A program made the translations under genes and the position numbers. From Candidatus Ratteibacteria bacterium (GTDB lineage: Bacteria; CAIJMQ01): a DNA stretch of 60,556 bases. Location of the stretch: assembly GCA_028715665.1 (NCBI GenBank), contig JAQURI010000002.1, positions 1 through 60,556 of the forward strand. Direction: 5' to 3'. Below, in pieces: positions 2,061-59,346 of the stretch. The notes beneath the pieces are model-generated. The model saw only the letters and a list, made by a program, of their open reading frames with translations. It did no database searches and was not told the DNA's origin. Each line of letters begins with the position of its first letter. The stretch's first letter is position 1.

Positions 2061-2087
2061 GAAACATAATTACGATAAAGCTATCGG
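2061..2087 (-). promoter_or_regulatory. type-1 promoter motif (BRE/TATA-like, 27-nt conserved)
   Basis: minus-sense CCGATAGCTTTATCGTAATTATGTTTC about 40 nt upstream of the ATG at 2036; one of 9 near-identical copies in the window. Confidence 0.6.
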
Positions 2088-6543: not shown

Positions 6544-6568
6544 AAACATAAAGAATATAAAGATATCC
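6544..6568 (-). promoter_or_regulatory. type-1 promoter motif
   Basis: minus-sense GGATATCTTTATATTCTTTATGTTT about 35 nt upstream of the ATG at 6525; nearly identical to the copy at 57959. Confidence 0.55.
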
Positions 6569-8095: not shown

Positions 8096-8127
8096 AAACA
8101 TAAATACGATAAAGATATCGGTCAATC
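8096..8127 (-). promoter_or_regulatory. type-1 promoter motif (extended)
   Basis: minus-sense GATTGACCGATATCTTTATCGTATTTATGTTTT; preceded by TGCACATACA, a variant of the TGTACGTACA palindrome. Confidence 0.6.
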
Positions 8128-9717: not shown

Positions 9718-9747
9718 AAAACCTAATTATGATATAGGTATCGGTCG
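9718..9747 (-). promoter_or_regulatory. type-1 promoter motif (variant)
   Basis: minus-sense CGACCGATACCTATATCATAATTAGGTTTT about 30 nt upstream of the ATG at 9704. Confidence 0.5.
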
Positions 9748-11311: not shown

Positions 11312-11336
11312 GATATCTTTATCGTAATTAAGTTTC
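11312..11336 (+). promoter_or_regulatory. type-1 promoter motif (plus orientation)
   Basis: GATATCTTTATCGTAATTAAGTTTC about 30 nt upstream of the ATG at 11349. Confidence 0.6.
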
Positions 11337-12757: not shown

Positions 12758-12783
12758 GGATACCTTTATCGTAATTGTGTTTC
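12758..12783 (+). promoter_or_regulatory. type-1 promoter motif (plus orientation)
   Basis: GGATACCTTTATCGTAATTGTGTTTC upstream of the 12809 small ORF and the 12931 gene. Confidence 0.55.
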
Positions 12784-28600: not shown

Positions 28601-30553
28601 TTATCTCCGTTTCAAGTATATGTAGTATCCGGCACCTACTATCCCGACAACCAGTAGAGCTATCAGGGCGTTTATTACCCATGCGTATCCACTTCCAATC
28701 AGGTCTTCAAGGAGTCCCGTCTGTTTCTGTAGTTTTTCGATTTCAGACGGCAATGTGTTCTTTGAAATGTTGATATTTACTGGCATTGATGTTTTTGATA
28801 ACGGGTTGTTCTTTGATTGCATTACTATTTTTGCAGAATAGTTTCCTGCTGCTCCGCTGAATGGGATGGTTGCTGTGCTTTCACCATTCGCCGGCAAGGT
28901 AAATGTTTGGACTCCACTTGACAGCGATGGCTTTGACTGTAGTGAGATATCAAACGAGTCCGGTACTTTTCCTATATTCTTGAATTTCACTATTTCATAT
29001 GAGGTTACCCCCTCTGTGGACGTCCCTCCATCTACGGATAGGATTTTCGGAATTCCGGCGTCTATTTGCATTGCAATTGTTTTTGCTTTTATTAGTAGCT
29101 GGAACTCAGGATATGTCACCGGATAGGTCGGCCTGCACACGACGGATAAAGATGGTACATCCAGAACACAATCTCTTGGTGTTGTTGTTTCCGTGGACAT
29201 GAGACCAAGCATGTTATTCAGGGTATTTTCTTTATCCGTAATCGTTTCCCGGCCTACTCCGGGGTCTCTGGCAACCGGTGCTGCCGGGGGGAGTGGGGCT
29301 GGCGGGACTGGTGGCGGTAACAGTGCCATGTTTATTGCTACTTTATTGATTGTTGGCATTGTGTTTATTTCCTGTACGAAATCCCTAAACCCTGTTGTTT
29401 TAGCTGTTATTGTATGCCTGCCTACAGTTACGTCCGGGATTGTTACCGGCGTAATCCCTGCTGCCCTGTTATCAATGTATATCGTCGCTCCGACCGGAGT
29501 TGAATTTATAACGAGAGAGCCTGCTAAGTTTGCCCAGCTATACACGAAATAGTTATTATCGAAGTTTACCAGTTCATCCAGTGTCGTTTTGTAATTACTG
29601 TATCTGGGCTTTGTGACGAATTTCAACTGGTCTTTTACCGGTGTTCCTTCCACGCCCTGAACAACGGCGAAATCAACGCCGGGCTGTGGCGGGAATACTG
29701 ATTCTATCCTTCCACCAATTGCTTTTATTCTTGCAAAGTCTCCAAGGTTACTGACCCTGTTCTGTTCGTCCATCGTAGTCTGGGCGAGAATTTCATCGTC
29801 TCTTGATAATGTGAATTGAACCTGATATTTATTGAATGGCATTGTGTCAATTAAATACCCACGGTAGTACGGCACACCGCCAAAATGTGTTACCCACCAG
29901 TTCCCGCTCTTATCTGCGCCGAACGGAATGTTTGATGCTTCCGGCATAACGTATGCCCATCTTCCGATATCGACCATGAGATTAACGTCCCCTCCAGATG
30001 GGAAATTACCGAGATGATTCATCTTTGGTGCCTGTCCGTTCGGGTCTACATACGTGCCCAGAGCGGATGCACGGGTTGTGAGCTTTGTGGCTTTTGAGTA
30101 TGGTACTGGTTGTGAGAGGTCTGCTGTTGCCGTGCTTTCGTATACTTTGTACATCACAACATCGTTATACAGTTTATACTGTAGTGACATATCCTGAAGC
30201 TCTACTGAAAGTGTAAGGTTTCCAAGCAACGTGTCCGGGATACCCATCCTGTTCAGGTCGTCCTGAGTTACGGTCGCTTTGATGCACTCCCCGCCCTTAT
30301 CTGCACGTACAGTTACCAAGTAGATTTTTTCATTGTTAAGTGTGGGTTCGTTGCTGATTGTCTTGATATCACTGACTCCGATAACTGTGAAATCACAGGT
30401 AGGTGCAGGGGTTATCGAGCCAAGTTTCAGGGTTGTTCCGAACAGGCCGAAATACGCCCCGGCCAGCCCAGATATTATTAGAACTGCGGCTATGATTGGT
30501 ATATATCCTGAATATTTATTGCCTTTTGATTTTCTCGATGTCATTTTAATCAC
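28601..30553 (-). CDS. large PEGA-domain surface protein
   Basis: 650 aa; clear PEGA motif INSTPVGATIYIDNRAAGITPVTIPDVTVGRHTITAKTTGF; proline-rich linker; N- and C-terminal TM. Confidence 0.8.
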   Translation of the reverse strand: MIKMTSRKSKGNKYSGYIPIIAAVLIISGLAGAYFGLFGTTLKLGSITPAPTCDFTVIGVSDIKTISNEPTLNNEKIYLVTVRADKGGECIKATVTQDDLNRMGIPDTLLGNLTLSVELQDMSLQYKLYNDVVMYKVYESTATADLSQPVPYSKATKLTTRASALGTYVDPNGQAPKMNHLGNFPSGGDVNLMVDIGRWAYVMPEASNIPFGADKSGNWWVTHFGGVPYYRGYLIDTMPFNKYQVQFTLSRDDEILAQTTMDEQNRVSNLGDFARIKAIGGRIESVFPPQPGVDFAVVQGVEGTPVKDQLKFVTKPRYSNYKTTLDELVNFDNNYFVYSWANLAGSLVINSTPVGATIYIDNRAAGITPVTIPDVTVGRHTITAKTTGFRDFVQEINTMPTINKVAINMALLPPPVPPAPLPPAAPVARDPGVGRETITDKENTLNNMLGLMSTETTTPRDCVLDVPSLSVVCRPTYPVTYPEFQLLIKAKTIAMQIDAGIPKILSVDGGTSTEGVTSYEIVKFKNIGKVPDSFDISLQSKPSLSSGVQTFTLPANGESTATIPFSGAAGNYSAKIVMQSKNNPLSKTSMPVNINISKNTLPSEIEKLQKQTGLLEDLIGSGYAWVINALIALLVVGIVGAGYYIYLKRR

Positions 30554-39941: not shown

Positions 39942-40192
39942 ATGAAAAAGAATGACATCTAAAGTAAATAAAGATATTGTGAACTACCTCACCCTGAAAT
40001 ACCTATAATCAGGACGATATTTTGTATAACCGGATTTTCCGATAATTTTTTATGATTCTCTTTGCTTGCCATGTTACCACAATTAGTTTATAATCGTACC
40101 ATTGCGATATAACTCTCGTCTCTAGCAGTGAGAGAGGTTCAATGGGTTAGTGATAGACAAAGACGATTTTATTTTTGAGGCACCCTGAAAAA

Positions 40193-40432
40193 TTAAAAAT
40201 CCGATAATTGTTTTTGGTGGCTGTCGTCGGGATGCTGGAACTCTGGTACCGTTCTCTGCATAAATTGTTCCTGTGCCTTTGGATTCAATGGGAATTCATT
40301 GTTGATTCCCACCAACTTTATTGGACATCTCTCGTTATGGTATTTTAGGTCATGATAACATCGTTCCACACAACAATATTGGATGATTTCTTCTTTTATC
40401 ACTTTCGTTTTTTCTTTGAACAAACCCACCAC
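40193..40432 (-). CDS. Cys-rich hypothetical protein
   Basis: 79-aa ORF (GTG); the same frame stays open and Cys-rich about 100 nt further upstream without a canonical start, so the true 5' end is uncertain. Confidence 0.4.
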   Translation of the reverse strand: MVGLFKEKTKVIKEEIIQYCCVERCYHDLKYHNERCPIKLVGINNEFPLNPKAQEQFMQRTVPEFQHPDDSHQKQLSDF

Positions 40433-40520
40433 ACAGCAGTTCTGGCTTGGCTTTCGGGCACATAAATCGACGCCATAGCATTTACTGCATACTGTTTTTT
40501 GGTTGAGTAATTTCGTTATA

Positions 40521-40796
40521 TCACTTTCCTTGTGTGGTTGTACGTACAGAATACTCTACTCTTAGTTGCTCGGCATTCTTCTGGTCTTCCGGTTTCAGGT
40601 ACCGCTTGTATCGCTCAAATAGTGTATTGGCTGCATCCGCCTCTTCCTGCGTGTAATCGCGCCATCCAGCCTGATACTCTTGCGTATTGCAAATTAGACG
40701 AAGGAATAAAGGGTCTATAGTTAGCAAGTCCGGGCTACGTCTGAATTGTTCCTTCTTTCGTTTAATACGATTTATAAGTGTTGACAAGTGGCTCAT
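40521..40796 (-). CDS. hypothetical protein
   Basis: 91-aa ORF, 4-nt overlap with the upstream gene. Confidence 0.5.
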   Translation of the reverse strand: MSHLSTLINRIKRKKEQFRRSPDLLTIDPLFLRLICNTQEYQAGWRDYTQEEADAANTLFERYKRYLKPEDQKNAEQLRVEYSVRTTTQGK

Positions 40797-41098
40797 TGTT
40801 TCACCTCAATATCATCTGCTTGAACTTTATCCAAATCTCTGATTTGTGCCGTGACTTTGTTAAGGATTGCAATGGGGGTGTCGTTCCTTATGAACTCATA
40901 TCGTGCTTTGTACTCATGGATTTTATGGAAAAATATCGCTAACGTGAAGCCCTGTTTGTTCTTCTTTCTTATCCATTCCCGTGCTTTTTTCTTTAAACAA
41001 TAAAGGCCGTCAGTATCTTTTTCCGCCGCAATATACCAGTTTTCTTTCTGTGACTCATTTTTTGTAATAATATTCCTCCTGATGTTAATTATTTGCAC
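40793..41098 (-). CDS. hypothetical protein
   Basis: 101-aa ORF (GTG inside a GGGTGC box); AGGAGG lies further in, so the start is uncertain. Confidence 0.45.
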   Translation of the reverse strand: MQIINIRRNIITKNESQKENWYIAAEKDTDGLYCLKKKAREWIRKKNKQGFTLAIFFHKIHEYKARYEFIRNDTPIAILNKVTAQIRDLDKVQADDIEVKQ

Positions 41099-41168
41099 CC
41101 GAAGAAAAAAAGCACGGATACAAGATAGGAAAACTAAAATATAAAAGTGAATGTCAGTTCATCCCTTT

Positions 41169-41195
41169 GAAACATAATTACGATAAACCTATCGG
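41169..41195 (-). promoter_or_regulatory. type-1 promoter motif
   Basis: minus-sense CCGATAGGTTTATCGTAATTATGTTTC, near-identical to the copy at 2061. Confidence 0.6.
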
Positions 41196-41230
41196 ATGCT
41201 AGAAGGCGGGGTATGCTTCATCCCCGTACT

Positions 41231-41380
41231 TCAGTACAGGGTATTCGCAAGTTCGTCTTCGAATTGGTGTTTTGCTATAGATAACCCTGCAATCGCCACG
41301 AATGGGTTGGGGTTTTCTTTTTTCAGAAATTCGCTTAGATGGATTAAAAATAATCCCGTTTCTTTTTGTGTATCGCTCAT
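41231..41380 (-). CDS. small hypothetical protein (49 aa)
   Basis: the ATG at 41380 follows a type-2 motif; the track start at 41428 reads through the motif. Confidence 0.4.
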   Translation of the reverse strand: MSDTQKETGLFLIHLSEFLKKENPNPFVAIAGLSIAKHQFEDELANTLY

Positions 41381-41427
41381 ATTTTGTATTTCCTGTGCGT
41401 TATAGCACCCGATGAAGAAAAAAAGCA
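41381..41427 (-). promoter_or_regulatory. type-2 cassette-boundary motif
   Basis: minus-sense T-run + CGGGTGCTATAACGCACAGGA + 10 nt + ATG(41380). Confidence 0.6.
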
Positions 41428-41532
41428 TGGGGTTGGATATCCTAAAAACGATGGTTCGAAGGAGATTGAGGGTACTAAAGAGGGATACCCAACCTGCATC
41501 TTATAGTTTGTCTGTCTTAGTATTTATATTTA

Positions 41533-41766
41533 TCACATCCTTTTATTTTTGTTGTCCCATGATATCCGTGTACTTCCTACTGTTCCTATCCGATATCTGT
41601 GACATCCCTCCCTTTCGTGTTTTAGGCAACAGTTTTTGGCTAACATGTTCCGGCATGATGCGCGTAACCGCACCGGTATTATATCCTCGACTTCCCGTTC
41701 TTCGAACAGAAGTCCTAAGATATTCCAGCGTGTTGCACAGCCGCCAATACGTGTTAGGTTGGGTAT
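41533..41766 (-). other. ORF-like open frame without canonical start (ATA at the position of the motif ATG), or ncRNA
   Basis: 77 sense codons follow type-2 motif copy 41779-41801; ATCGAAATA replaces the consensus ATTGAAATG; region is GC-richer than neighbours. Confidence 0.3.
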
Positions 41767-41778
41767 TTCGATGTGGAT

Positions 41779-41801
41779 TCCTCCTGTGCGTTATAGCACC
41801 C
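41779..41801 (-). promoter_or_regulatory. type-2 cassette-boundary motif
   Basis: minus-sense GGGTGCTATAACGCACAGGAGGA; no ATG-initiated ORF follows. Confidence 0.55.
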
Positions 41802-41807
41802 TAGAAT

Positions 41808-41872
41808 GCTTCACAATTAAGAAGATTTGCCCTGAGAAATAAAATACGATAAAATAAGGGGAATTGTGAAGC
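41808..41872. repeat. inverted repeat gcttcacaatt / aattgtgaagc (43-nt loop)
   Basis: 11-bp perfect stem; the loop carries a type-1-like TTATTTTATCGTATTTTATTTC box; the same stem recurs at 49007-49041. Confidence 0.65.
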
Positions 41873-41897
41873 ACCCGAAAAAAAAAATGTTCCGCCC

Positions 41898-42134
41898 TTA
41901 TGCTACCAAGATATTATTTTTAACAATTTCAATGCCGTTTTCAGAGATATATCGTGTTTCTATGTCTTTTGGTGATGCTCTATTTTTCAACATTTTGACC
42001 CGCTCCTTGGGGCTCGACACAGAATCTCTCCTATTAATTGTTTCTGGGTTCCATTTCGACCAGAGAATACATCCGTTACAATCTCCTGTTCCAAGCAGTT
42101 GATTCTTACTCTTACAGTTTCCGCAGTATTTCAT
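41898..42134 (-). CDS. Cys-rich hypothetical protein
   Basis: 78 aa; CGNCKS...CNGC; the ATG is immediately preceded by a type-2 motif. Confidence 0.5.
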   Translation of the reverse strand: MKYCGNCKSKNQLLGTGDCNGCILWSKWNPETINRRDSVSSPKERVKMLKNRASPKDIETRYISENGIEIVKNNILVA

Positions 42135-42172
42135 CTCAATCGCTCCTGTGCGTTATAGCACCCGAAAAAAAA
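42135..42172 (-). promoter_or_regulatory. type-2 cassette-boundary motif
   Basis: minus-sense TTTTTTTTCGGGTGCTATAACGCACAGGAGCGATTGAG + ATG(42134). Confidence 0.65.
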
Positions 42173-42242
42173 TAACTATTAAAGATGTTCCGCCTTTAAT
42201 GATTTTTCTACTTCCAAAATTAAATCATCTGCGATTCTTCTA

Positions 42243-42440
42243 TTATGACTTCCGGGGTTTGTTGCATATCCAGTACCTCTTTTTTCTTAGACCATATATT
42301 ACACTCGATACAAAGCTTCCAATAGTTAATATTATGACGTTTCTGATTACGTTTTCGTCTGTTAGTAGATACAGAACCAATGCCGTCAGCACTAAGAATA
42401 TTGCAGTTTTTCCCACTGCGTCTTTTAAGATTTCCTTCAT
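42243..42440 (-). CDS. small membrane protein
   Basis: 65 aa, two TM helices; GGAGGCAGACA precedes the ATG; preferred over the overlapping 42220-42543 frame. Confidence 0.45.
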   Translation of the reverse strand: MKEILKDAVGKTAIFLVLTALVLYLLTDENVIRNVIILTIGSFVSSVIYGLRKKRYWICNKPRKS

Positions 42441-42476
42441 TGTCTGCCTCCACTACTGACTTTTTCGTATTGGATA

Positions 42477-42641
42477 TTACGTTTTTTTCTGGCGGTCTTC
42501 TCTCCATTCTCCAGCCGGATTGACCAAATGTATCATAATACATCCCTCATCCTGATAAACAGAAAACTGTTCATCCTTTTTTGGTCTGGCTTCTTTCAAC
42601 CAGTGATTCACTGCATTTCGCACATCGGTTTTGTTTAACAT
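42477..42641 (-). CDS. small hypothetical protein (54 aa)
   Basis: hand-translated MLNKTDVRNAVNHWLKEARPKKDEQFSVYQDEGCIMIHLVNPAGEW... Confidence 0.4.
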   Translation of the reverse strand: MLNKTDVRNAVNHWLKEARPKKDEQFSVYQDEGCIMIHLVNPAGEWREDRQKKT

Positions 42642-42648
42642 TGTAGCC

Positions 42649-42858
42649 TCATTTTAACATCGCTACAAGTTCATCATCTGTGACCTTGCCTTTTCTCACC
42701 ATATCGTTTATGATGGTCGTCGAATCAACTGGCTTTCCGTTTCTGAGGACATGCCCGGCGGAATCTACCTGATAGAATTCCTGACAGAACTCCCTTATCC
42801 TGCCATTCGTTGCATCGAAATTTATTTTATCTCCGTCAATTAGTCCCATCTTTGCCAT
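42649..42858 (-). CDS. hypothetical protein
   Basis: 69-aa ORF in chain. Confidence 0.5.
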   Translation of the reverse strand: MAKMGLIDGDKINFDATNGRIREFCQEFYQVDSAGHVLRNGKPVDSTTIINDMVRKGKVTDDELVAMLK

Positions 42859-43345
42859 CTCCTGTTTCCGATATTTCGGTGTTCTTTTTATTCATTTCAA
42901 GCATTCGTTCGAACATTTCTCCGGCCTGACTGTTGGTTCCCTGATACTTATATGCCAGCAATCCGATTAACGCTGAATCCAGAGACGCATAGCCTTTGCC
43001 GGTATCCATGAAATTTATGTATGTGTGGAAAATATGATACGGGTGTGGTTCTGATGCGATATCATGAGGAACCTCAAGAATTATATATTCTCCGTTGTTG
43101 ATTATAAAATCGTTTATGCTCCTGTATTTGCCCAATTCCAGCTTGAGATATATTATCTTTTCTGGAAGTGCTGTTTCGCTGATATCTTTTTCGGTCACTA
43201 CTGGCAGGTTATTAAGAAGATAGTTGCCTGTTCCGGCTGCGAGGAAGTGGGTCAATCCACCCATGCATTTCGCTTCTTCAATTAACTGACCGAGTTCCCC
43301 GGTCGTGTTAAGTTTTACGATTCGTAATGGTTTTAAATTTCTCAT
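42836..43345 (-). CDS. hypothetical protein
   Basis: 169-aa ORF in chain. Confidence 0.55.
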   Translation of the reverse strand: MRNLKPLRIVKLNTTGELGQLIEEAKCMGGLTHFLAAGTGNYLLNNLPVVTEKDISETALPEKIIYLKLELGKYRSINDFIINNGEYIILEVPHDIASEPHPYHIFHTYINFMDTGKGYASLDSALIGLLAYKYQGTNSQAGEMFERMLEMNKKNTEISETGDGKDGTN

Positions 43346-43377
43346 AAATATTTCTCCATAGTGTACGTGAAGTGTAT

Positions 43378-44031
43378 TCAGGACGACGAGTTATCGCTAT
43401 CTGTTCTGAACCTCATTCTTTCTGCCCTTTGTTTCCGTCTGAGGGCTTGGACGTATTCAATTGAGCCTTCCGGTTTTATGGCTGGTATATTCTTCAGGTA
43501 TTCCGGGGCAACTTCGTGCATCCATTCAGATAATGCTACGATGAAATTGTCATAGTTCTCATGCTCCCGGTCTCTCCGGTTGCCTATCTCATCTATCAGC
43601 CCTGCACATCGCAGGATTTCGTTATGCAAATCCCGCCTAAGTTCTTCCAGACCCATTATCCTATGTGCGTCCAGAAGTTTACCGGTCTTTGAGTCCTGTA
43701 ATCTCCCTGAAACGTGGAAGAAGTATCGTTCCAGCATTTCTCTCGGCACCATTATACCTGCTAAGGTTACGTATTTTGAGTCAAGATATTCCCTATGTGT
43801 TTTTAGCCTGATTTTGAATTCCATATCCGTGACTTCGAAATATTTTGGATTTGACGAATCTATTATTGTTGCATCACCGTCCAGAATTGCACCTATCTGA
43901 GAGCTTGAGATGCCTCTGAAACATTTTAGCATCTCTATTGCCTCTGTGGTTTTCCGTTCGAAATGAAATAGTTGCCGGGCTAAATCCACAATGAATTTCG
44001 AAGTCACTGAAAAATGTGTGTCCTGTTCCAT
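43378..44031 (-). CDS. hypothetical protein
   Basis: ATG at 44031 preceded by AAAGGAGAA; the track TTG start at 44082 is less likely. Confidence 0.6.
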   Translation of the reverse strand: MEQDTHFSVTSKFIVDLARQLFHFERKTTEAIEMLKCFRGISSSQIGAILDGDATIIDSSNPKYFEVTDMEFKIRLKTHREYLDSKYVTLAGIMVPREMLERYFFHVSGRLQDSKTGKLLDAHRIMGLEELRRDLHNEILRCAGLIDEIGNRRDREHENYDNFIVALSEWMHEVAPEYLKNIPAIKPEGSIEYVQALRRKQRAERMRFRTDSDNSSS

Positions 44032-44374
44032 AGCGATTTCTCCTTTATCTATGATTTTTTTAGTCTTCTTCTGGTACGTCAATACAATTTAGGCCATTCG
44101 AATTTAGTGAATCCACATAAACGTGACCAGATACCAGATTTACGGCAATTGTATTTGTGTTTATAGTATTCATAAGGTGTTTCTTCTTTTAGATTTATGA
44201 TTCCGGCTGCACATTTACTGCTGTTATATTTGTTATTAATTCAGTGTATGCTTCCAGTAATATTTTTTTCGCTTTTTCTGGCTGCTTGCTATCTATTTAA
44301 TTGATAGCATCTTGCAGTTTTGTGCTTGCTGAATTAATAACATCGTTTGATATTAGTACGTATTTCATGATACA

Positions 44375-44764
44375 TCAGTCCTCAGCGGTTCCTGTTTTTC
44401 CATGTATCTCTTCTTCTGTATATAGCTGTGAAACTTCACATCGGGCGCAGATTCGCGTTCCGTCTTTGCGCCTAATAACTGAAGGTAATCTCCGTTCGCA
44501 GACGTTGCAGGCATTATGTAGCCATTTATCTTCGATTTTTAGCAGGTCTTCTGATTCTACAATACCTGTTCCATGTATTATCCTCTGCTTGCTTGCTATC
44601 TCTTGGAATATCGATTGTGCGGTCATTAATATTGCTGTTTCGATTGCATCTTCAGTGGTCTCTTCTATATCTAAAGCTGCTCTGGATTCTTCCGGGATGC
44701 CGTTCCTTTTTACAAGTTGCTTCCATACAGCTTCCTTTATTTCTCTTGGATGCCGTGTCTCCAT
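44375..44764 (-). CDS. hypothetical protein with C-terminal zinc ribbon
   Basis: 129 aa; CNVCERR...CARCE. Confidence 0.55.
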   Translation of the reverse strand: METRHPREIKEAVWKQLVKRNGIPEESRAALDIEETTEDAIETAILMTAQSIFQEIASKQRIIHGTGIVESEDLLKIEDKWLHNACNVCERRLPSVIRRKDGTRICARCEVSQLYTEEEIHGKTGTAED

Positions 44765-44765
44765 T

Positions 44766-45146
44766 TTAAGCCTCCTTTTTCTGTTCCGATGCTATTCGTT
44801 TCAACGTTCTTATTGAATCTTTTTTCGTTATAAATTTTCCACAATGAAAACAGAATCCATTGCGGTCTGTTGTTCCATGACCTTCTTTTGGACAGGCCAA
44901 TACATCTGTTACCAGACTGCTCAATGCTTCACCGAACGGGGTGTCCCTTTCTATTATCCGTGCCGGAATTCCATTCTTGTCGTTGAACCCGGCTACTATG
45001 AAAATATTATTGTGAAGCCTTGCACGCATCCACTCGTATTCCTGTGGGTCTCCGATGCTGCCCTCATTCTGTTTCTGGAGATGTATAATGTATCGTTCTA
45101 TTGTTTTTAGAGATACATCCCTGCCAGATAATGTTATTGTGTTCAT
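44766..45146 (-). CDS. hypothetical protein
   Basis: the ATG at 45146 directly follows a type-2 motif; the track start at 45170 translates the motif itself (MKHTGAIE). Confidence 0.55.
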   Translation of the reverse strand: MNTITLSGRDVSLKTIERYIIHLQKQNEGSIGDPQEYEWMRARLHNNIFIVAGFNDKNGIPARIIERDTPFGEALSSLVTDVLACPKEGHGTTDRNGFCFHCGKFITKKDSIRTLKRIASEQKKEA

Positions 45147-45186
45147 TTCAATCGCTCCTGTGTGCTTCATAGCACCCGAAAAAATT
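45147..45186 (-). promoter_or_regulatory. type-2 cassette-boundary motif
   Basis: minus-sense TTTTTTCGGGTGCTATGAAGCACACAGGAGCGATTGAA + ATG(45146). Confidence 0.65.
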
Positions 45187-45311
45187 TAGTCGGGCTTGTA
45201 TTTTTCGTAAAACTCTTCGTCCGACATCAATAATATCTCAAGAATTTTTAATCTTTTTGGTATTTTCACAGAATACCAATCTGTTTTCGTGAGGGTTTCT
45301 GCTGAGTTCAT
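45186..45311 (-). CDS. small hypothetical protein (41 aa)
   Basis: hand-translated MNSAETLTKTDWYSVKIPKRLKILEILLMSDEEFYEKYKPD; ATGA overlap with the upstream stop. Confidence 0.4.
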   Translation of the reverse strand: MNSAETLTKTDWYSVKIPKRLKILEILLMSDEEFYEKYKPD

Positions 45312-45697
45312 TTTTGCTCTGAAAATTCTATGCAGTATATTTCCCTGATTGTTGCCCTTATACGCTCTCCCCAGTTTATAAATCCTTGAAAGCTACACCA
45401 TCTATCTAATAGCTGGTCATTGCTCATTCCATTGATTTGCGAGTCTTTTGATGTATCTGTTGGGTCAAGGCCGAAACTTTCTCTAATATCTGATAGAGTG
45501 GAGTCGTGAAGTCGTTCAGTATTTGGCACGGGTCTCTCTGCTGGACAGGTTATATATGCTGTCAGGGCTGCATTTTTCATTGTGTTGAGAATATGGTCTG
45601 GAATGTCTGTATTGTGTTTTTGTATCCAGATGTACGCTTCAATTACCTGTTTCTGGTTCTCATTCAAGTTGTCTTTTGGTTTATCTAATAAGCTCAT
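45308..45697 (-). CDS. hypothetical protein
   Basis: 129-aa ORF in chain. Confidence 0.55.
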   Translation of the reverse strand: MSLLDKPKDNLNENQKQVIEAYIWIQKHNTDIPDHILNTMKNAALTAYITCPAERPVPNTERLHDSTLSDIRESFGLDPTDTSKDSQINGMSNDQLLDRWCSFQGFINWGERIRATIREIYCIEFSEQK

Positions 45698-45893
45698 TCG
45701 CTTCCTCCTTAACCGGTGTATATATCCATGTTAATCTTGTGTCTCCTTGCTTTTTTTCTACCATTCCCTTTTCTCTCAGGCGTTCGACCTGCTGGGTTAC
45801 TCCCCAATTTACGCCGAGTTCGTCTTTAATCCCGTTTCCCGTAATCCCTTCCGGATGGTTTTTGATTATTTTCCATATGTCGTCCTGTGCCAT
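45681..45893 (-). CDS. small winged-helix DNA-binding protein
   Basis: 70 aa; IIKNHPEGITGNGIKDELGVNWGVTQQVERLREKGMVEKK. Confidence 0.6.
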   Translation of the reverse strand: MAQDDIWKIIKNHPEGITGNGIKDELGVNWGVTQQVERLREKGMVEKKQGDTRLTWIYTPVKEEANELIR

Positions 45894-46016
45894 TCTTTTT
45901 TTCCTGATACTTCTTTTTCCTATTTGTTCCTGTGAAGCACCCGACGTGTTCCAATGGCGGCTTTAATGGGCTAAACCCCTATTCGCTCGGCTCGGAGCAC
46001 CCTAAAAAATAAAATA

Positions 46017-46370
46017 TTATCCTGAAACCATTTTCATAACAATCTCATGGTCACATGCCTTCGGTTCAGTTTCAGGTTTTTCTTCTGGTATAAAATCGTG
46101 AGTGGACTCTTCTTGTTTAAGTTCCGGGATTTCTCCCGGCTGTTTCGGCGTATTCATTCCAGCCCAGTCCCTTACCATGTCCCTAATGCTTTGCCAGTCA
46201 TCATATGAACCGACAATCATCCGGCCAAACTCCGGGTCGGGTTGTACCTCATCGGGCGTCCGTTCAGTTACCAATACTGGTTTTGGTTCTTCAATGACTT
46301 TATTTATTTGTAGTCTTCCTATGATGATTCCACTGAATTTCAGGTCTTTTATCGTGTCAATGAGTAACAT
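46017..46370 (-). CDS. hypothetical protein
   Basis: ATG at 46370 sits just after the upstream stop; the track TTG start is at 46385. Confidence 0.5.
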   Translation of the reverse strand: MLLIDTIKDLKFSGIIIGRLQINKVIEEPKPVLVTERTPDEVQPDPEFGRMIVGSYDDWQSIRDMVRDWAGMNTPKQPGEIPELKQEESTHDFIPEEKPETEPKACDHEIVMKMVSG

Positions 46371-46371
46371 C

Positions 46372-46542
46372 TTAGTGGCTCCCAATGTTTAGAATTCCTT
46401 CGTCAGCGAGTTCTTTCATTATCTTATTGTACAGTTCAATAAGTTCGTATACATCTTTTATTGGTAGTTTGGCGTTTGGGTCGAGTTCTGCGTCTTGTAT
46501 TGTCCACATGTGGTCGCCTACAAAATGTTTTTTTATTCTCAT
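46372..46542 (-). CDS. small hypothetical protein (56 aa)
   Basis: hand-translated MRIKKHFVGDHMWTIQDAELDPNAKLPIKDVYELIELYNKIMKEL...; preceded by CAGGACTGATTGAAAT (3' half of the type-2 motif). Confidence 0.4.
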   Translation of the reverse strand: MRIKKHFVGDHMWTIQDAELDPNAKLPIKDVYELIELYNKIMKELADEGILNIGSH

Positions 46543-46549
46543 ATTTCAA

Positions 46550-46810
46550 TCAGTCCTGTTTGGCATTACTGCCCTGTGTTCTGGCCTTATATATCTTATA
46601 TACATACCATATCAGCCGTTTAGTTTCGATTAATATCCAGAATAAAAAAATTCCAGCTATTATAAAGCTAATAAATGAAGATGCAAGTGCAGTCTTGTCA
46701 TTTGCCACTTCAGGCGTTAATGTTAGCGCATTCATAACCCCTGAGACCACACCAAAAACAGCCAGAAGATAAATGAAAAGTCTATACTTATCATAACGTT
46801 CTATTTCCAT
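46550..46810 (-). CDS. small membrane protein
   Basis: 86 aa, two TM helices; the ATG directly follows a type-2 motif. Confidence 0.5.
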   Translation of the reverse strand: MEIERYDKYRLFIYLLAVFGVVSGVMNALTLTPEVANDKTALASSFISFIIAGIFLFWILIETKRLIWYVYKIYKARTQGSNAKQD

Positions 46811-46849
46811 ATTTCAATCGCTCCTGATGCGTTATAGCACCCAAAAAAA
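46811..46849 (-). promoter_or_regulatory. type-2 cassette-boundary motif
   Basis: minus-sense TTTTTTTGGGTGCTATAACGCATCAGGAGCGATTGAAAT + ATG(46810). Confidence 0.65.
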
Positions 46850-46852
46850 TAG

Positions 46853-47323
46853 TTAAAGCAGATTAAAAACGTCTTCCTGCTTTGCCCGTCTATTCAAATA
46901 CTCCCAATCTATTTTATTAGTGTATGCCCGCTGGAGCATCTTTGCCTGCTCACAATCGTATGTGGATTTCCAGAATCTACAAGCACATAAACGGTCTACT
47001 ATCAGGTCTTCTATAGAGATTATCTTGATTTTTTTTCCTTTATACATCAAAATCTTACATCTCTCCCCGTGTAGTGCATCCTTTGGGATTTCGATATAGT
47101 GTGGATATTTATAGAAATGCCTGCCCGTTTCTTTAAATCCCCATTGCCTTAACATCGGCACCAATACACTTCTGTCTGCAATCAAATCAAGGTCTTGGCT
47201 TCTTGATGCCCCTCTTGTGTACAATTCAACCGCAGAGCCACCAACAAGGATTGGTTTTGTTTCGTCCGGGAAATACGAACTAATCTCGGCAAGAAGGTCA
47301 AACTTTCGTCTTAATCGTCCCAT
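46853..47323 (-). CDS. minimal nucleotidyltransferase-fold protein (DUF6036/AbiEii-like)
   Basis: 156 aa; ILVGGSAVELYT..SQDLDLIAD and ISIEDLIVDRL motifs typical of small archaeal NTase toxin-like proteins. Confidence 0.6.
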   Translation of the reverse strand: MGRLRRKFDLLAEISSYFPDETKPILVGGSAVELYTRGASRSQDLDLIADRSVLVPMLRQWGFKETGRHFYKYPHYIEIPKDALHGERCKILMYKGKKIKIISIEDLIVDRLCACRFWKSTYDCEQAKMLQRAYTNKIDWEYLNRRAKQEDVFNLL

Positions 47324-47484
47324 GGTAGTATTTCTACTATTTCATTTCCTTTAAATATTACTCCTTCTGAAACAGCAGCCTCCGCTAATATACAGAATAC
47401 CTCTAACTTCTGCGGGTCTCGTGGTCTTGTCCTTACCAGCCCGTCTGTTTTGTCTATCATGATATTTGTCTTATTTAATTTCAT
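47311..47484 (-). CDS. small protein upstream of and overlapping the NTase gene (possible cognate partner)
   Basis: 57 aa from the ATG at 47484; 13-nt overlap with the NTase ORF. Confidence 0.45.
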   Translation of the reverse strand: MKLNKTNIMIDKTDGLVRTRPRDPQKLEVFCILAEAAVSEGVIFKGNEIVEILPWDD

Positions 47485-47536
47485 AATATTTATACCCTTT
47501 CCGATGCTTGTTTTTTGCACCCGGAAAAAATTGCAT

Positions 47537-47556
47537 CTCCCTGTACGTACAGGGAG
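47537..47556. terminator. perfect 20-bp palindrome ctccctgtacgtacagggag
   Basis: lies 1 nt 3' of the stop of 47558-48250; followed (minus sense) by a T-run and a GGGTGC box; its centre is TGTACGTACA. Confidence 0.5.
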
Positions 47557-47557
47557 A

Positions 47558-48250
47558 TTAGAGGTTGATATATGCCATTCTTTGTTTTGTGAAGCTCAGG
47601 TCTTTTGTGAGTTCTGCTTTTACTGCTGCAATATCGTCTGTTAATATCTTTTCCCTGATTGTTTTAAGCTGTAAATCAACTTCGGGGTCGTTCAGGACGT
47701 TCACGGATTTCAGCCGTTCTATGAGATTGAGCATTGCATTCTTGCTTTTATCTGGCAATTGTCCTGCTTTCTCTCCTATTTTCTCAATGAGTTCGTACAT
47801 GATTTTGTACCGGATTGCTGAAATTACCTGTCCGTATAACTCCCCGCGCTGGACATCGTGAATGTTCAGTTCGAGAAAAATTACCTCAGCATGAAGGTTT
47901 TTCGCCAGTTTCTGGAAATCCGTTTCTGCACTTGCTGTGATTTCACGGATTTCTTTTTTCTGCGATTCATTACATAAATGTAATGGGTTCTTGAATTCCG
48001 GCGGGAAGTCCACGGTCTTGTCTCTTATCTGACCCATGTGCTTTTCCCTGATTGCGCTTATCTTATTCCTTACGTTTTTCGGATAAGTGAAATCGATTTC
48101 TCGTTTCATATCAGAAAGTTCTTGTGAACTGTCTATTCGGTTCGGTGATGCGTATTGTGTCTGCACCACGAACACACGTACTGCCGACTGTTCAGCCGGT
48201 TTTTCCTGTGTATCCGTTCTTGCCTGTGTTTCTGCCTGTGTTTCTGCCAT
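47558..48250 (-). CDS. hypothetical protein
   Basis: 230-aa ORF; the ATG directly follows a type-2 motif; AETQAETQA N-terminal repeat. Confidence 0.6.
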   Translation of the reverse strand: MAETQAETQARTDTQEKPAEQSAVRVFVVQTQYASPNRIDSSQELSDMKREIDFTYPKNVRNKISAIREKHMGQIRDKTVDFPPEFKNPLHLCNESQKKEIREITASAETDFQKLAKNLHAEVIFLELNIHDVQRGELYGQVISAIRYKIMYELIEKIGEKAGQLPDKSKNAMLNLIERLKSVNVLNDPEVDLQLKTIREKILTDDIAAVKAELTKDLSFTKQRMAYINL

Positions 48251-48292
48251 ATTTCAATCTCTCCTGATGCGTTATAGCGCCCGGAAAAAAAA
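48251..48292 (-). promoter_or_regulatory. type-2 cassette-boundary motif
   Basis: minus-sense TTTTTTTTCCGGGCGCTATAACGCATCAGGAGAGATTGAAAT + ATG(48250). Confidence 0.65.
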
Positions 48293-48299
48293 GTTAAGT

Positions 48300-48473
48300 C
48301 TATTTATTAACCTTAAACTCTATCTTAACTTCTTCCCCCATATTATATTTCTTTCTGATTGCGGTTCTTGCAGCGTTGAAATATAATTCCATTTTCTCTG
48401 GGTTTTTTTCATCAACATATTCGCTCGGAAAATCTTCGTCGATTTTTCCTGTGACTCTTAAAGTTAATTCCAT
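48300..48473 (-). CDS. small hypothetical protein (57 aa)
   Basis: hand-translated MELTLRVTGKIDEDFPSEYVDEKNPEKMELYFNAARTAIRKKYNMGEEVKIEFKVNK; the ATG follows a type-2 motif. Confidence 0.45.
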   Translation of the reverse strand: MELTLRVTGKIDEDFPSEYVDEKNPEKMELYFNAARTAIRKKYNMGEEVKIEFKVNK

Positions 48474-48516
48474 AGTTCAGTTGCTCCTGATGCTTTAGTA
48501 TAGCACCCGAAAAAAT
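48474..48516 (-). promoter_or_regulatory. type-2 cassette-boundary motif (variant)
   Basis: minus-sense TTTTTTCGGGTGCTATACTAAAGCATCAGGAGCAACTGAACT + ATG(48473). Confidence 0.6.
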
Positions 48517-48566
48517 AAAGAAAAGAAGTCTGATATGTCAAATTTCCGACTTGTCTTTTTTTAATA

Positions 48567-48860
48567 TTATGGTTCTGTGACTACGTATACGTACTCGCAG
48601 GGACACCGATATATGTTGTGTTTATTAATATCTCCGTCCATATTTATTTCCGCAGCCACTGTTTCTTTCACCAGCATTTCTCCACATACTGGACATAGTT
48701 TATCTATACGCAGTTTTCGCCAACTAAATCTCGTTTTTGGTCTGTAACATTGGTCATCGTATCTCATCTGTAATGATTTGAGACTCTTGAACTCTTCTAT
48801 TTTCTTCGACTGTTCTTTTTCTCTGGCTATACATTTCTCTTTAAACAATTCTAAATTCAT
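48567..48860 (-). CDS. zinc-ribbon protein
   Basis: 97 aa from the ATG at 48860; CPVCGEM...YRCPCEY; the track start at 48893 translates the motif. Confidence 0.5.
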   Translation of the reverse strand: MNLELFKEKCIAREKEQSKKIEEFKSLKSLQMRYDDQCYRPKTRFSWRKLRIDKLCPVCGEMLVKETVAAEINMDGDINKHNIYRCPCEYVYVVTEP

Positions 48861-48892
48861 TTCAATCGCTCCTGTGTGTTTTATAGCACCCA
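48861..48892 (-). promoter_or_regulatory. type-2 cassette-boundary motif
   Basis: minus-sense GGGTGCTATAAAACACACAGGAGCGATTGAA + ATG(48860). Confidence 0.65.
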
Positions 48893-49006
48893 ATAAGGTT
48901 TCATCCTCATCACGCGTTCACATGAGGCTTACATCTTACTACATTGTCTGGGTTCTTCTATTAACCGTCGTTAACAGCTTACACCCGTGCCGTAGCACCC
49001 TATAAT

Positions 49007-49041
49007 GCTTCACAATTAAGGAATAAGGGGAATTGTGAAGC
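49007..49041. repeat. inverted repeat gcttcacaatt / aattgtgaagc (13-nt loop)
   Basis: same 11-bp stem and flanking GGGTGC boxes as 41808-41872. Confidence 0.65.
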
Positions 49042-49045
49042 ACCC

Positions 49046-49073
49046 GAAAGGGGATGGATTCTTATCCCCTTTC
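49046..49073. repeat. 10-bp perfect hairpin gaaaggggat / atcccctttc
   Basis: 8-nt loop; directly abuts the 49007-49041 hairpin. Confidence 0.6.
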
Positions 49074-49277
49074 ACCTCTTACCTATCCTGTGTCTTTCCT
49101 ATCTTTTTTCCTATCCGGTGCGAGTTCCATTGCACCCGTGATGCTTCTCTTTTTTTGAAGGTGACTTGTTGTCGATAGAGCAGCATCTATTAGTGTCACG
49201 GGTGGAGAAACCGTGGCTGACTTTTTTACGCGCGTGAGAATCATATTAATCCATGACACGCGCACCCGAAAAAAATG

Positions 49278-49487
49278 TTATATGCCGTATATTTCGGCTG
49301 ACCATAACGCTATTCTTCTTTGTGCTTCTTTTTCAGAGTCTGTTAAATCATCTCCGTGCCTGTTTGATGATAGTAGTTTTCCCTGAGTGAGCACCTGAAT
49401 TGTTTTATCTGCTGGTATGAATGATATCTGAGCTACAGATATTATTCCTTTGAGTTCATCATATATTTGTTTAGTTATTGTTTTCAT
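49278..49487 (-). CDS. hypothetical protein
   Basis: 69-aa ORF; the ATG directly follows a type-2 motif. Confidence 0.5.
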   Translation of the reverse strand: MKTITKQIYDELKGIISVAQISFIPADKTIQVLTQGKLLSSNRHGDDLTDSEKEAQRRIALWSAEIYGI

Positions 49488-49516
49488 TTCAATCGCTCCT
49501 GTGCGTTATAGCACCC
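49488..49516 (-). promoter_or_regulatory. type-2 cassette-boundary motif
   Basis: minus-sense GGGTGCTATAACGCACAGGAGCGATTGAA + ATG(49487). Confidence 0.65.
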
Positions 49517-49534
49517 GCCCCGCTGACCCTTGTA

Positions 49535-49557
49535 CAATATATCGTAATATGTTGTAC
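49535..49557 (+). promoter_or_regulatory. type-1-like promoter motif (plus orientation) facing the ORF-poor GC-rich region
   Basis: CAATATATCGTAATATGTTGTAC shares TATCGTAAT..ATGTT with the type-1 consensus; embedded in the inverted repeat tgtacaa/ttgtaca. Confidence 0.4.
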
Positions 49558-50203
49558 ATGCGAGGCTTGGGTTCCGTTTAACCAGCACTTTGCGTGCTTA
49601 ACGGAAATGGAATTCCAGTAAAGGGAGAGGGAAAGTCCAACACCATACGAGAGGAGACTCTCCGGGTGCTTTTTGTCAGAATAATCCGACGCACTCGTAT
49701 TTCGGCACAGGGTCGCAGCCTGTGCCCTCTATTCCTTTTGCGGTTTTCGTCTTTGTCTGTCACTAACCCTACTGCGTTAGCAGTCCTTATTACTAAGCTA
49801 CTGTGTTTTTCATCACAGTAACCCCGGAATTCCGTACTTTCGAGCGTCATTTGCGTGCTGCCGTCGGGATTAACCTACCTCAGCACAACATCAGCAAAGG
49901 GGGGCTGTCTTGCCGCTTTGTGTCTGCCTTTGTGCGGTGTGTTAAACCGCCCCCTGGCAAACCCCTTATCAATTTCAGTCTCGCAAACATCACACCCGAA
50001 GGGATTTTTGGTCGGGTGCTCATAACTTGGGAGTTGCCCCCTTTCAGGGGCATCTTCCTGTACGTACATATTAGTTGATTGGTTGATATATACCTTACGG
50101 TTGGTAGTATATATCGTGGGACAAGTTGGGTTTATATAGTCCTTTGGTTGGGACGAGTCGTGAGACTGTTGGTTTATATACTTTAATTATTAAATAATGT
50201 TTT

Positions 50204-50470
50204 ATGACAACAGTTAGACATAACCTGAAGGCTGACGATGAAGCTCTTGCTTTGATTAATAAAGTTCGTGCTGCCCTTAGACAGCGTGGTGTAGGCAATC
50301 CAGATACGTCTGATGTTATTAGGGAGTTATATTCAGAAAGGAATCTCAGTCAAAAACTGTGCAGCCGGTTAATTAATTTTGCCGGTGAATATGGTGATAA
50401 CGAGGGGGCTGTCGATGTCCTTGACAGGCTCCTGCATGAACTGGCTGACCTGCGAGCTAAAACTCACTAG
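50204..50470 (+). CDS. hypothetical protein (possible ribbon-helix-helix)
   Basis: 88-aa ORF; N-terminal TVRHNLKADDEALALINKVRAAL resembles a strand-helix RHH start; convergent with the RNA ligase gene. Confidence 0.45.
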   Translation: MTTVRHNLKADDEALALINKVRAALRQRGVGNPDTSDVIRELYSERNLSQKLCSRLINFAGEYGDNEGAVDVLDRLLHELADLRAKTH

Positions 50471-51726: not shown

Positions 51727-51746
51727 GGTTCTGTTAAGTTGTCGGG
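51727..51746. repeat. left terminal inverted repeat ggttctgttaagttgtcggg
   Basis: the reverse complement of 52355-52374 differs at one position. Confidence 0.85.
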
Positions 51747-53612: not shown

Positions 53613-53681
53613 GTTTGAGAAAAAAATATGTTAAAGATGCTCGGACGTTGTTTTATACGAACATCTTTACGTGCAGGTTGT

Positions 53682-57958: not shown

Positions 57959-57983
57959 AAACATAAAGAATATAAAGATATCG
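57959..57983 (-). promoter_or_regulatory. type-1 promoter motif
   Basis: minus-sense CGATATCTTTATATTCTTTATGTTT about 40 nt upstream of the ATG at 57935. Confidence 0.6.
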
Positions 57984-59313: not shown

Positions 59314-59346
59314 GAAACATAATTACTATAAAGGTATCGGTCAATC
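59314..59346 (-). promoter_or_regulatory. type-1 promoter motif (extended)
   Basis: minus-sense GATTGACCGATACCTTTATAGTAATTATGTTTC, immediately preceded by TGTACGTACA (59350-59359). Confidence 0.6.

Follow-up and report, generated by a model that had tools for sequence, protein, structure and literature searches.

The window analysed here, meaning the whole stretch of 60,556 nt at positions 1 to 60,556 of contig JAQURI010000002.1 (assembly GCA_028715665.1, deposited as Candidatus Ratteibacteria bacterium), encodes salactin, MC1, a SET-domain protein, PCNA, a T4 Rnl1-type RNA ligase, HNH nucleases, PEGA-domain proteins and a fusexin-like protein, and it contains a block of small, mostly orphan genes in which one and the same short repeat stands ahead of unit after unit. 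The nearest named relatives of its MC1 (63-66% identity) and of its Rnl1-type ligase (53% identity) come from Candidatus Methanoperedens and Methanosarcinaceae. A search of phage and plasmid databases gave no record resembling the window, and an IMG/VR protein search gave no close relatives of it. The contig is incomplete, terminal repeats were not found in it, and one NCBI metagenome contig reaches 1.2 kb beyond its start. The window is an undescribed extrachromosomal element or virus of Methanosarcinales (Archaea), probably associated with Methanoperedens, and the signals of the repeat therefore need to be read by archaeal rules.

Relatives of the element were sought by its ligase, by the 230-amino acid (aa) protein of the block and by the repeat itself, which yielded eight further distinct contigs from at least six samples (L007/L008/L015, L009/L013, L012, L017, L018, L019, L020 and L021). 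All of them carry units composed of a T-run, a GGGTGC hairpin and a Shine-Dalgarno element (SD), in one orientation, in a block downstream of salactin, MC1, the ligase and a structured RNA. The full layout on the sense strand is stop codon, T6-T10, (C), GGGTGC, an A/T-rich stretch of 3-12 nt, GCAC, GCATC or CACC, AGGAG, about 8 nt (CGATTGAA) and ATG, so that the module takes up about 45 bases; in 34 copies with a T-run from five contigs, the consensus upstream of the box is wwTTwATTTTTTC, followed directly by GGGTGC. The hairpin, 16-22 nt in extent, begins 0-2 nt behind the U-tract. The start codon follows GGGTGC at a variable distance (18 to 32 nt), while the spacing of AGGAG and ATG is nearly constant. 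In the block of the window, the T-runs typically lie within a few bases after a stop codon, and 12 of the 13 sense-strand runs of six or more T adjoin GGGTGC or sit 4-7 nt 5' of it. Across the relatives, a T6-T10 run is present in 66 of 114 units; copies without it are almost always the second hairpin in a unit opened by a T-run copy, or otherwise the first copy of the array, as in the window (GGGTGC at 49516).

For the counts in the window, a covariance model trained on 51 units from the nine contigs was run unfiltered over both strands. At E <= 0.012 it returned 11 matches (next best E = 0.097), which all fall on the minus strand within 41065-49528; three of these (47486-47534, 41065-41112 and 41770-41813) lie outside the training set. 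GGGTGC, once in the form GGGCGC, occurs 19 times on the minus strand of 40185-49516 versus 4 times in the remaining ~51 kb, and TTTTTNGGGTGC occurs seven times, all on the minus strand within 41871-49273, where 0.06 occurrences are expected. The nine near-identical minus-strand copies listed in the original prediction are all present, its coordinates being those of the base preceding the ATG, and its degenerate GGGTGC variants were likewise recovered (41100, 41876, 45942, 46002, 47522 and 49267, with plus orientation at 49664 and 50014); further GGGTGC copies stand at 49137, 49045, 49000 and 40185. The view that the repeat forms a dedicated boundary or leader class confined to a modular accessory block is supported. 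A literal 29-mer, even with up to 3 mismatches, matched no more than 2 copies, as indels of 1-6 nt in the A/T-rich stretch set the copies apart, and this search was replaced by regular-expression and covariance-model scans. The plus-strand GGGTGC at 51744 looks like a chance occurrence. All features of the array are collected in Table 1.

Table 1. Module copies and associated features of the array, from the highest to the lowest coordinate (E values refer to the covariance model).
Feature	Positions	Strand	E	Unit opened and remarks
Canonical TATA box (GGTATATATC)	50085-50094	-		Upstream of structured leader RNA; conserved in L007, L009 and L020
Candidate structured non-coding RNA or leader, ~550 nt	49517-50065	-		Runs into first module copy
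Module copy 1: GGGTGC-TATAAC-GCAC hairpin, AGGAG, ATG, no T-run	49484-49528	-	1.7e-8	69-aa gene 49278-49487
Non-coding stretch opened by T7 + GGGTGC (49267)	48861-49279	-		Five GGGTGC-closed hairpins, among them 49267, 49137, 49045 and 49000; no open reading frame (ORF); runs into copy 48891
Module copy, GGGTGC 48891	48857-48903	-	1.1e-8	97-aa CxxC gene 48567-48860
Module copy, T6, GGGTGC 48508	48472-48520	-	2e-10	57-aa gene 48300-48473
Module copy, T8, GGGCGC 48282	48249-48294	-	7e-10	230-aa gene 47558-48250
Degenerate module copy, T6, GGGTGC 47522	47486-47534	-	1.8e-4	57-aa gene 47311-47484 and DUF6036 nucleotidyltransferase 46853-47323
Module copy, T7, GGGTGC 46842	46809-46854	-	2.4e-12	46550-46810, 46372-46542 and 46017-46370
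Double unit: T6 + GGGTGC (46002) hairpin, then GGGTGC (45942) with extended stem UGCUUC/GAAGUA	45894-46014	-		70-aa gene 45681-45893, weakly winged helix-turn-helix (wHTH)-like; 45308-45697 and 45186-45311
Module copy, T6, GGGTGC 45177	45143-45189	-	2.8e-9	~9 genes from 45146 down to 42243, no internal module
Module copy, T8, GGGTGC 42163	42131-42175	-	5.6e-11	78-aa gene 41898-42134
T10 + GGGTGC (41876) with 15-bp stem, then standard copy GGGTGC 41801	41770-41887	-	0.012 (copy 41770-41813)	SD present, no start codon and no ORF on minus strand after it; ~350 nt non-coding downstream, ending with hairpin + T7 at 41424
Module copy, GGGTGC 41410, T7 7 nt upstream	41379-41422	-	1.8e-5	49-aa ORF 41231-41380
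Degenerate copy, T7, GGGTGC 41100	41065-41112	-	1.6e-4	40793-41056 and 40521-40796
Last, weak T-run + GGGTGC (40185) at block end	40180-40198	-	below model significance	

What all units share is a hairpin with GGGUGC as its 5' arm, and not a TATA box. GCAC, GCAUC or CACC forms the 3' arm and UAUAAC (TATAAC) the loop, and in the minimum free energy fold of every short copy a GGUGC/GCAYC stem is present, with SD and AUG unpaired (-5 to -7 kcal/mol at 37 C). Over the nine contigs, U4 and G5 of the box are paired downstream in 100 of 114 units (88%), versus 59% with shuffled tails. The 3' arms vary and yet stay complementary: GCAUC in 20 units (5 bp, one G-U), GCAC in 17 (4 bp) and NCACC, the flavour of the distant relative L020, in 16 (4 bp via G2-G5). 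The wobble pairs are G-U on the sense strand, as each of the 20 GCAUC units shows, which favours RNA, or the sense strand of the DNA alone, over a duplex-DNA site. In units with long loops (13-240 nt), the bases adjoining the box pair with those adjoining the 3' arm, and these pairs differ between families: TTCACAATT/AATTGTGAA at 49045 and 41876, TTCAC/GTGAA in L009, TTCACGT/ACGTGAA in L018, ATTGTA/TACGGT in L007 and L019, TTC/GAA before the wHTH-like gene in four contigs and TGCTG/CAGCA, which bridges ~240 nt in L017 and L020; TCCGAG/CTCGGA also covaries. Counterparts of the double unit at 45894-46014 occur in L007, L017, L019 and L021, where the loops differ and the stems are kept, and the hairpin as such is maintained in all nine contigs with loops from 3 to ~240 nt. 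A helix search over 300 nt per unit with shuffling was too permissive and was significant for long stems only. The stems of the ORF-less stretch 48861-49279 are GCGCGUG/CACGCGC, GGUGC/GCACC, a 14-bp GGUGCUUCACAAUU stem and GUGC-UACG-GCAC, and a homologous multi-hairpin stretch is present in L009; this unit and the one at 41430-41800 may be small RNAs or decayed cassettes.

The presence of this hairpin changes how the A/T-rich stretch is read. A TATAA element 24 nt before the ATG had been proposed as a promoter-like component at a set distance from the start codon. However, the stretch varies between 3 and 12 nt, is not TATA-like in L020 (AAGAAT, ATAAA etc.), and always lies between two complementary arms, and it is therefore a hairpin loop; the distance that is conserved is the one from SD to ATG. 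The accompanying suggestion of leaderless use of the ATG found no case, the SD spacing being conserved and TATAA being the loop. A general model with TATAAC as TATA box, GGGTGC as B recognition element (BRE) and leaderless mRNAs was rejected because the ATG distance of 18-32 nt is too short in the window copies, the loop in L020 is non-TATA and long-loop units are without TATAAC. The bacterial reading, in which TGnTATAAT would be an extended -10 box, was rejected in view of the archaeal gene content and of the L020 flavour, in which the TGCTATAAT-like strings that resemble such a box are lost. No TATA-like or A/T enrichment was found at -34 to -20 from GGGTGC, and a TATA box hidden 26 nt ahead of GGGTGC was likewise dismissed, with no positional enrichment of A/T or TTTAWATA. 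The apparent TATA before the first copy belongs to a covarying hairpin. What remains as the sole TATA-like signal near the module is the region of the T-run.

The comparison of cassette maps over the nine contigs agrees with the idea of a modular block with the repeat as recombination scaffold, since the relatives keep the motif and differ by whole cassettes, including permuted order; the opposite outcome, relatives with neither motif conservation nor cassette-wise variation, was looked for, and they show both. The module is conserved in relatives down to 43% protein identity (L020), and the distant ligase relatives L010 and L011 are without the motif. Neither IMG/VR nor a set of one genome for each of 185,579 prokaryotic species (GTDB) contains the pattern TTTTTNGGGTGCTAWAA...GCAY.AGGA, and in metagenomes of the Joint Genome Institute (JGI) it was found in only six stretches, all of this element family; being restricted to the family, it is not a generic host signal. 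The cassette of the 230-aa gene is present in most relatives, with at least four different left and at least four different right neighbours across elements. The order of the groups F9 F6 F10 and F3 F2 is reversed in L019, F17, early in the window, comes late in L019, F4 and F5 form one unit in the window and are separate and reversed in L007, and cassettes with AAA-ATPase and DUF1257/DUF2997 genes, present in six relatives, are missing from the window. The contigs L019 and L021 start at most ~50 nt from a module copy, which suggests that cassettes are polymorphic in the population.

The module also comes in flavours, which are GCAC-AGGAGCGATTGAA in the window and L009, GCATCAGGACAAGTGATTGAA in L007 and CACCAACGGAGGAATTTAAA in L020. 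In L007, the cassette F21-F24 has a leader of the L020 type and its homologues sit in L020, which indicates that cassettes travel with their leader, while in the window a leader remnant, CAGGACTGATTGAAATATG, ahead of 46542 marks an old junction. Since the same ~40 nt flanks every unit, the module provides homology for gain, loss, reordering and import of cassettes. The comparison shows this second role, with each element homogenising its own module flavour.

As to a possible counter-defence role of the block, the DUF6036 nucleotidyltransferase cassette 46853-47484 (minus strand; Pfam E = 8e-9) has a weak AbiEii-like PADLOC match (E = 7e-4), and this is the only match, the other genes being orphans. 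The 57-aa gene in front overlaps the nucleotidyltransferase gene, and the two make a toxin-antitoxin-like pair in one cassette, also found in L018. In long leaders of two relatives (L007 8932-9020; L020 4096-4180 and 4903-5000), an ACCTCC anti-Shine-Dalgarno stands between two GGGTGC hairpins, and a GCAGGGY...RCCCTGC hairpin adjoins the second box; these leaders could be cases of SD sequestration, i.e., riboregulation.

Upstream of the first copy, between the ligase side and the first cassette, lies a region that is 66-79% identical among four elements with diverged flanks (homologues at L007 7040-7640, L009 11420-12015 and L020 3140-3865). RNAalifold gave 118 pairs for it, of which 32 show compensatory double changes, and in the minus orientation G-U pairs are numerous. 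Rfam gave no match at gathering score over the whole window, and in 49400-50250 only a chance-level match to the selenocysteine insertion sequence (SECIS) family (E = 0.95). By its conservation and covariation, this ~550-nt region is a candidate for a new large structured RNA or leader; from the archaeal spacing between TATA box and transcription start site (TSS) (PMC5378194), its predicted start lies at ~50060-50069, inside the palindrome TGTACGTACAG. In the window, L007, L009 and L020, the first module copy, with hairpin and SD and no T-run, stands directly behind the structured RNA. The RNA holds two conserved AGCACCCG (plus-strand GGGTGC at 49664-49669 and 50014-50019), exact complements of the leader start CGGGUGCU, one of which falls where the RNA is predicted to be single-stranded. 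The two may act as an anti-box that pairs in trans, or else as inverted sites for a protein. Divergent from the structured RNA and behind TTTATATA boxes, an 88-aa protein (50204-50470, plus strand) is conserved in L007 and L009; its N-terminus looks ribbon-helix-helix-like by eye, it has no family match, and it is a candidate regulator of the array.

It is already known that archaeal transcripts, those of Methanosarcina mazei included, end after U-tracts of 4-7 U with no hairpin, and that aCPSF1/FttA binds U-tracts and cuts the nascent RNA (PMC8716108, PMC11616081); internal partial terminators were reported for 38% of Methanococcus operons (PMC10450193). The T6-T10 runs of the module agree with these terminators in lying on the sense strand directly behind stop codons with no upstream hairpin needed, and they differ in that each U-tract is joined, 0-2 nt further downstream, to a conserved hairpin and SD, an arrangement not described for host terminators. 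Judged from the sequence and this established knowledge, the T-run would be the end signal of the upstream unit. An avoidance of sense-strand T-runs within long operons was considered as proof of a terminator and was uninformative, as composition alone predicts ~3 runs versus 2 seen.

With moderate confidence, we lean towards the explanation that the repeat serves an archaeal mobile element as a portable boundary module which works mainly at the RNA level. Transcription would start at the canonical TATA promoter at ~50.09 kb and enter the array through the ~550-nt structured leader RNA; at each boundary, the U-tract would cause partial termination or 3'-end cleavage, and the adjacent hairpin would mark and protect the 5' side of the next unit while keeping its ribosome-binding site exposed, with a series of separately dosed units as the probable outcome. 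Transcription from 50085-50094 into the array is favoured since the first copy of four elements has hairpin and SD without a T-run behind the structured RNA, and since the T-run as a TATA box meets difficulties that are given below.

Several points weigh against this explanation. Because the 5' arm is invariant, the short stem is without true covariation, and the argument for a structure depends on variation in the 3' arm and on units with long loops. Invariance also extends to unpaired bases, namely G1, the C before it and often G2, which points to a sequence-specific reader, i.e., a protein, a nuclease or a polymerase. Termination at the T-runs and 5' ends at GGG are predictions, and twelve successive U-tracts would strongly attenuate read-through, so that the distal units need inefficient termination or starts of their own, while no canonical promoter is visible for them. 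The units may be expressed by read-through with processing or by a new start at each copy.

If there were a new start at each copy, the module could be a dedicated promoter of a temporal class with its operator, a reading that we treat as a serious and yet doubtful one. The T-run (often TTTATTTTTT) would then be the TATA box and GGGTGC an element-specific promoter or regulator site, read by, e.g., the divergent 88-aa protein or the wHTH-like protein, and transcription would start at the conserved C/A step before GGAG, giving very short leaders. The T-run region is indeed the only TATA-like candidate beside the module, the invariant hexamer with its unpaired G1 and G2 fits recognition by a protein, inverted copies stand in the control region (49664 and 50014), and the haloarchaeal virus HGTV-1, as described in PMC3950731, has a repeated promoter motif ahead of most early ORFs. 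A canonical archaeal promoter has an A/T-rich TATA box ~19-27 nt ahead of the TSS, and 5' of this box a purine-rich BRE. However, in Methanolobus, a member of Methanosarcinales, BRE/TATA lies 19-22 nt from the TSS (PMC5378194), and with the T-run as TATA this spacing would put the start inside or after AGGAG, so that the best-conserved translation signal would be lost, although the spacing of SD and ATG is what is best kept. The 5' arms of the T-run units, which sit in conserved stems with G-U pairs and loops of up to 240 nt, would be untranscribed and have no role; the first copy has the whole leader without a T-run; and a spacing of 3-12 nt between the arms would not be tolerated by a dimeric operator.

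The promoter reading also gains from class B (ccGATAtCTTTATCGTAATTATGTTTcaa), another repeated upstream motif of the window, with 6 matches at <=3 mismatches versus 0 expected. Its sites are 2062-2085(-), 6544-6567(-), 8096-8119(-), 9719-9742(-), 11312-11335(+), 12759-12782(+), 41170-41193(-), 57959-57982(-) and 59315-59338(-), and the canonical promoter-like box at 41170-41193 precedes the degenerate module copy 41065-41112. From its sequence, class B looks like a canonical BRE/TATA promoter class for other modules of the genome (the PCNA/HNH region and the right end); different BRE/TATA-like boxes in other modules are expected of temporal classes, and by analogy class B raises the chance that the present module (class A) is a promoter, which counts against an action mainly at the RNA level. 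After the MC1 gene, at 53620-53626 (minus strand), a T7 run is preceded by a class-B-like box (ATCTTTAAC) and followed by the next ATG at only 7 nt, with no GGGTGC, as in another compact terminator/promoter-like junction.

Two further readings make the U-tract a processing site. In the first, which we regard as unlikely, the array would be one long transcription unit headed by the ~550-nt RNA, host aCPSF1/FttA or an element factor would cut at the U-tract and GGGUGC hairpins without being able to terminate, and the AGCACCCG anti-boxes could pair with every leader and so tune the block in trans. In this way, a mobile element would turn terminators of its host into sites of processing, from which hairpin-capped mRNAs are set free. 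The second, RNA punctuation proper, is a more specific version of the favoured explanation, and we hold it to be quite unlikely: aCPSF1/FttA or another nuclease would cut at the U-tract, the hairpin would block 5'->3' digestion and the polymerase would stay on, so that downstream units become hairpin-capped monocistronic mRNAs. U-rich RNA is bound by FttA, whose cut falls ~22 nt behind the polymerase and which needs 5'->3' digestion in order to terminate (PMC11616081), and this cut-then-digest behaviour suits the punctuation reading. The hairpin of 16-22 nt, placed 0-2 nt past the U-tract, suits it too, and the invariant G1 with its preceding C is as expected at a defined cleavage junction. 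On the other hand, the reading rests on inference and a small hairpin of 4-5 bp may not stop an exonuclease; we know of no precedent for punctuation by U-tract and hairpin.

The array also brings to mind an integron, with the imperfect inverted repeats, their conserved ends and variable centre (3-240 nt) as an attC-like recombination site and the first copy, without T-run, as attI; the co-oriented small cassettes, their permuted order between relatives and the conserved platform of structured RNA, ligase and salactin beside a highly variable array all fit. We find this reading very improbable, as no tyrosine or serine recombinase and no HUH enzyme was recognisable in the 60-kb window, no recombinase domain was found in the flanks of the relative contigs either, the copies are without the attC core GTTRRRY, a 40-nt repeat suffices for exchange by ordinary homologous recombination, and a repeat locked to SD and start codon is tied to expression. 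A selfish palindromic repeat of the repetitive extragenic palindromic (REP) or miniature inverted-repeat transposable element (MITE) type, dispersed over the intergenic spaces and of no use to the element, is hardly credible: the long-stem variants (49045, 41876, L009 and L018) look like small GGGTGC-flanked palindromic insertions, but the strict single orientation, the fixed position from stop codon to SD/ATG, the restriction to one block and the conservation down to L020 speak against it, and no transposase associated with the module was found in the window.

Apart from the array, a 595-aa protein (26380-28167, minus strand) matches NCBIfam Fsx1 with E = 9e-19, which is below the family cut-off, and Pfam HAP2-GCS1 with E = 3e-5; this fusexin-like gene is flanked by PEGA-domain proteins (25161-26387 and 28601-30553). 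The palindrome (C)TGTACGTACA(G) is strongly over-represented in the window (21 strand-hits versus 0.46 expected), with sites at 465, 2215, 15134, 21517, 23291, 30301, 36968, 40538, 47541, 50058 and 59349, one of which is the predicted start of the structured RNA, while another makes a hairpin behind the 230-aa gene. An RNA polymerase gene was not recognisable in the window.

Among known systems, integron attC/attI arrays share with the present one the co-oriented cassettes, the palindromic boundary with variable centre and a distinct first site by a conserved platform. They differ in the integrase, which was not found here, in the arms (GGGTGC ... GCAY(C) instead of RYYYAAC ... GTTRRRY) and in that the module repeat heads the cassette at its 5' end and belongs to the translation signal. 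REP and MITE repeats occur in either orientation together with a REP-associated tyrosine transposase (RAYT) or an insertion sequence (IS) transposase, unlike the module, which has one orientation and one block with no transposase found.

It is known that 5'-terminal and intercistronic stem-loops stabilise mRNA segments and that RNase III punctuates the early polycistronic transcript of phage T7. The likeness lies in a boundary hairpin beside an exposed ribosome-binding site and in one repeated RNA signal that serves many small early genes; the enzymes here would be other ones and the cleavage is putative. To our knowledge, there is no archaeal example of such T7-like punctuation.

A closer archaeal parallel is the haloarchaeal tailed virus HGTV-1, for which a TATA-like box and an inverted repeat were described before most ORFs of one genome arm, a motif that its authors already compared with the promoter early stem-loops (PeSLs) of T4-type phages (Sencilo 2013, as cited in PMC3950731). 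By that account, it shares with the present element an archaeal virus setting and one repeated motif ahead of many small early-type ORFs. When its genome is read directly, the motif proves to be a haloarchaeal BRE/TATA of canonical form (CGAAAgGTTTAAGTAGT), placed ~33 nt ahead of the ATG; an SD is missing, so that the mRNAs are of the leaderless type. The present module is without such a BRE/TATA box and combines a T-run and a hairpin closed by GGGTGC with a strong SD.

PeSLs themselves are composite terminator/promoter cassettes which mediate modular shuffling (PMC2839356, PMC4122927). As in the present element, they are a repeated composite regulatory sequence of ~40-60 nt between small orphan genes of a hyperplastic block, combine a stem-loop with expression signals, are rare in structural-gene regions and have lineage-specific flavours; in both cases, indels, replacements and rearrangements between relatives (here, nine contigs) coincide with the repeat. 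They differ in having a bacterial sigma-70 promoter (-35/N17/-10), in contrast to a module without recognisable archaeal BRE/TATA in an archaeal host, and in that the stem-loop of a PeSL is a terminator which comes before the promoter, while here a bare T-run comes first, then the leader stem-loop and then the SD. The module would be a clear archaeal counterpart of the phage idea of a mobile regulatory cassette, in an undescribed element family linked to methane-cycling archaea. It would offer a natural system for studying the modulation of archaeal U-tract termination and a compact portable expression module potentially usable in Methanosarcina genetics, and the combination of T-run and GGGTGC is a marker for the variable accessory block of this family in metagenomes. 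In the end, the module is a composite regulatory boundary cassette of a known kind, built of archaeal parts in a new arrangement, in which the U-tract is fused to leader hairpin and Shine-Dalgarno element with an anatomy unlike the bacterial and haloarchaeal cases.

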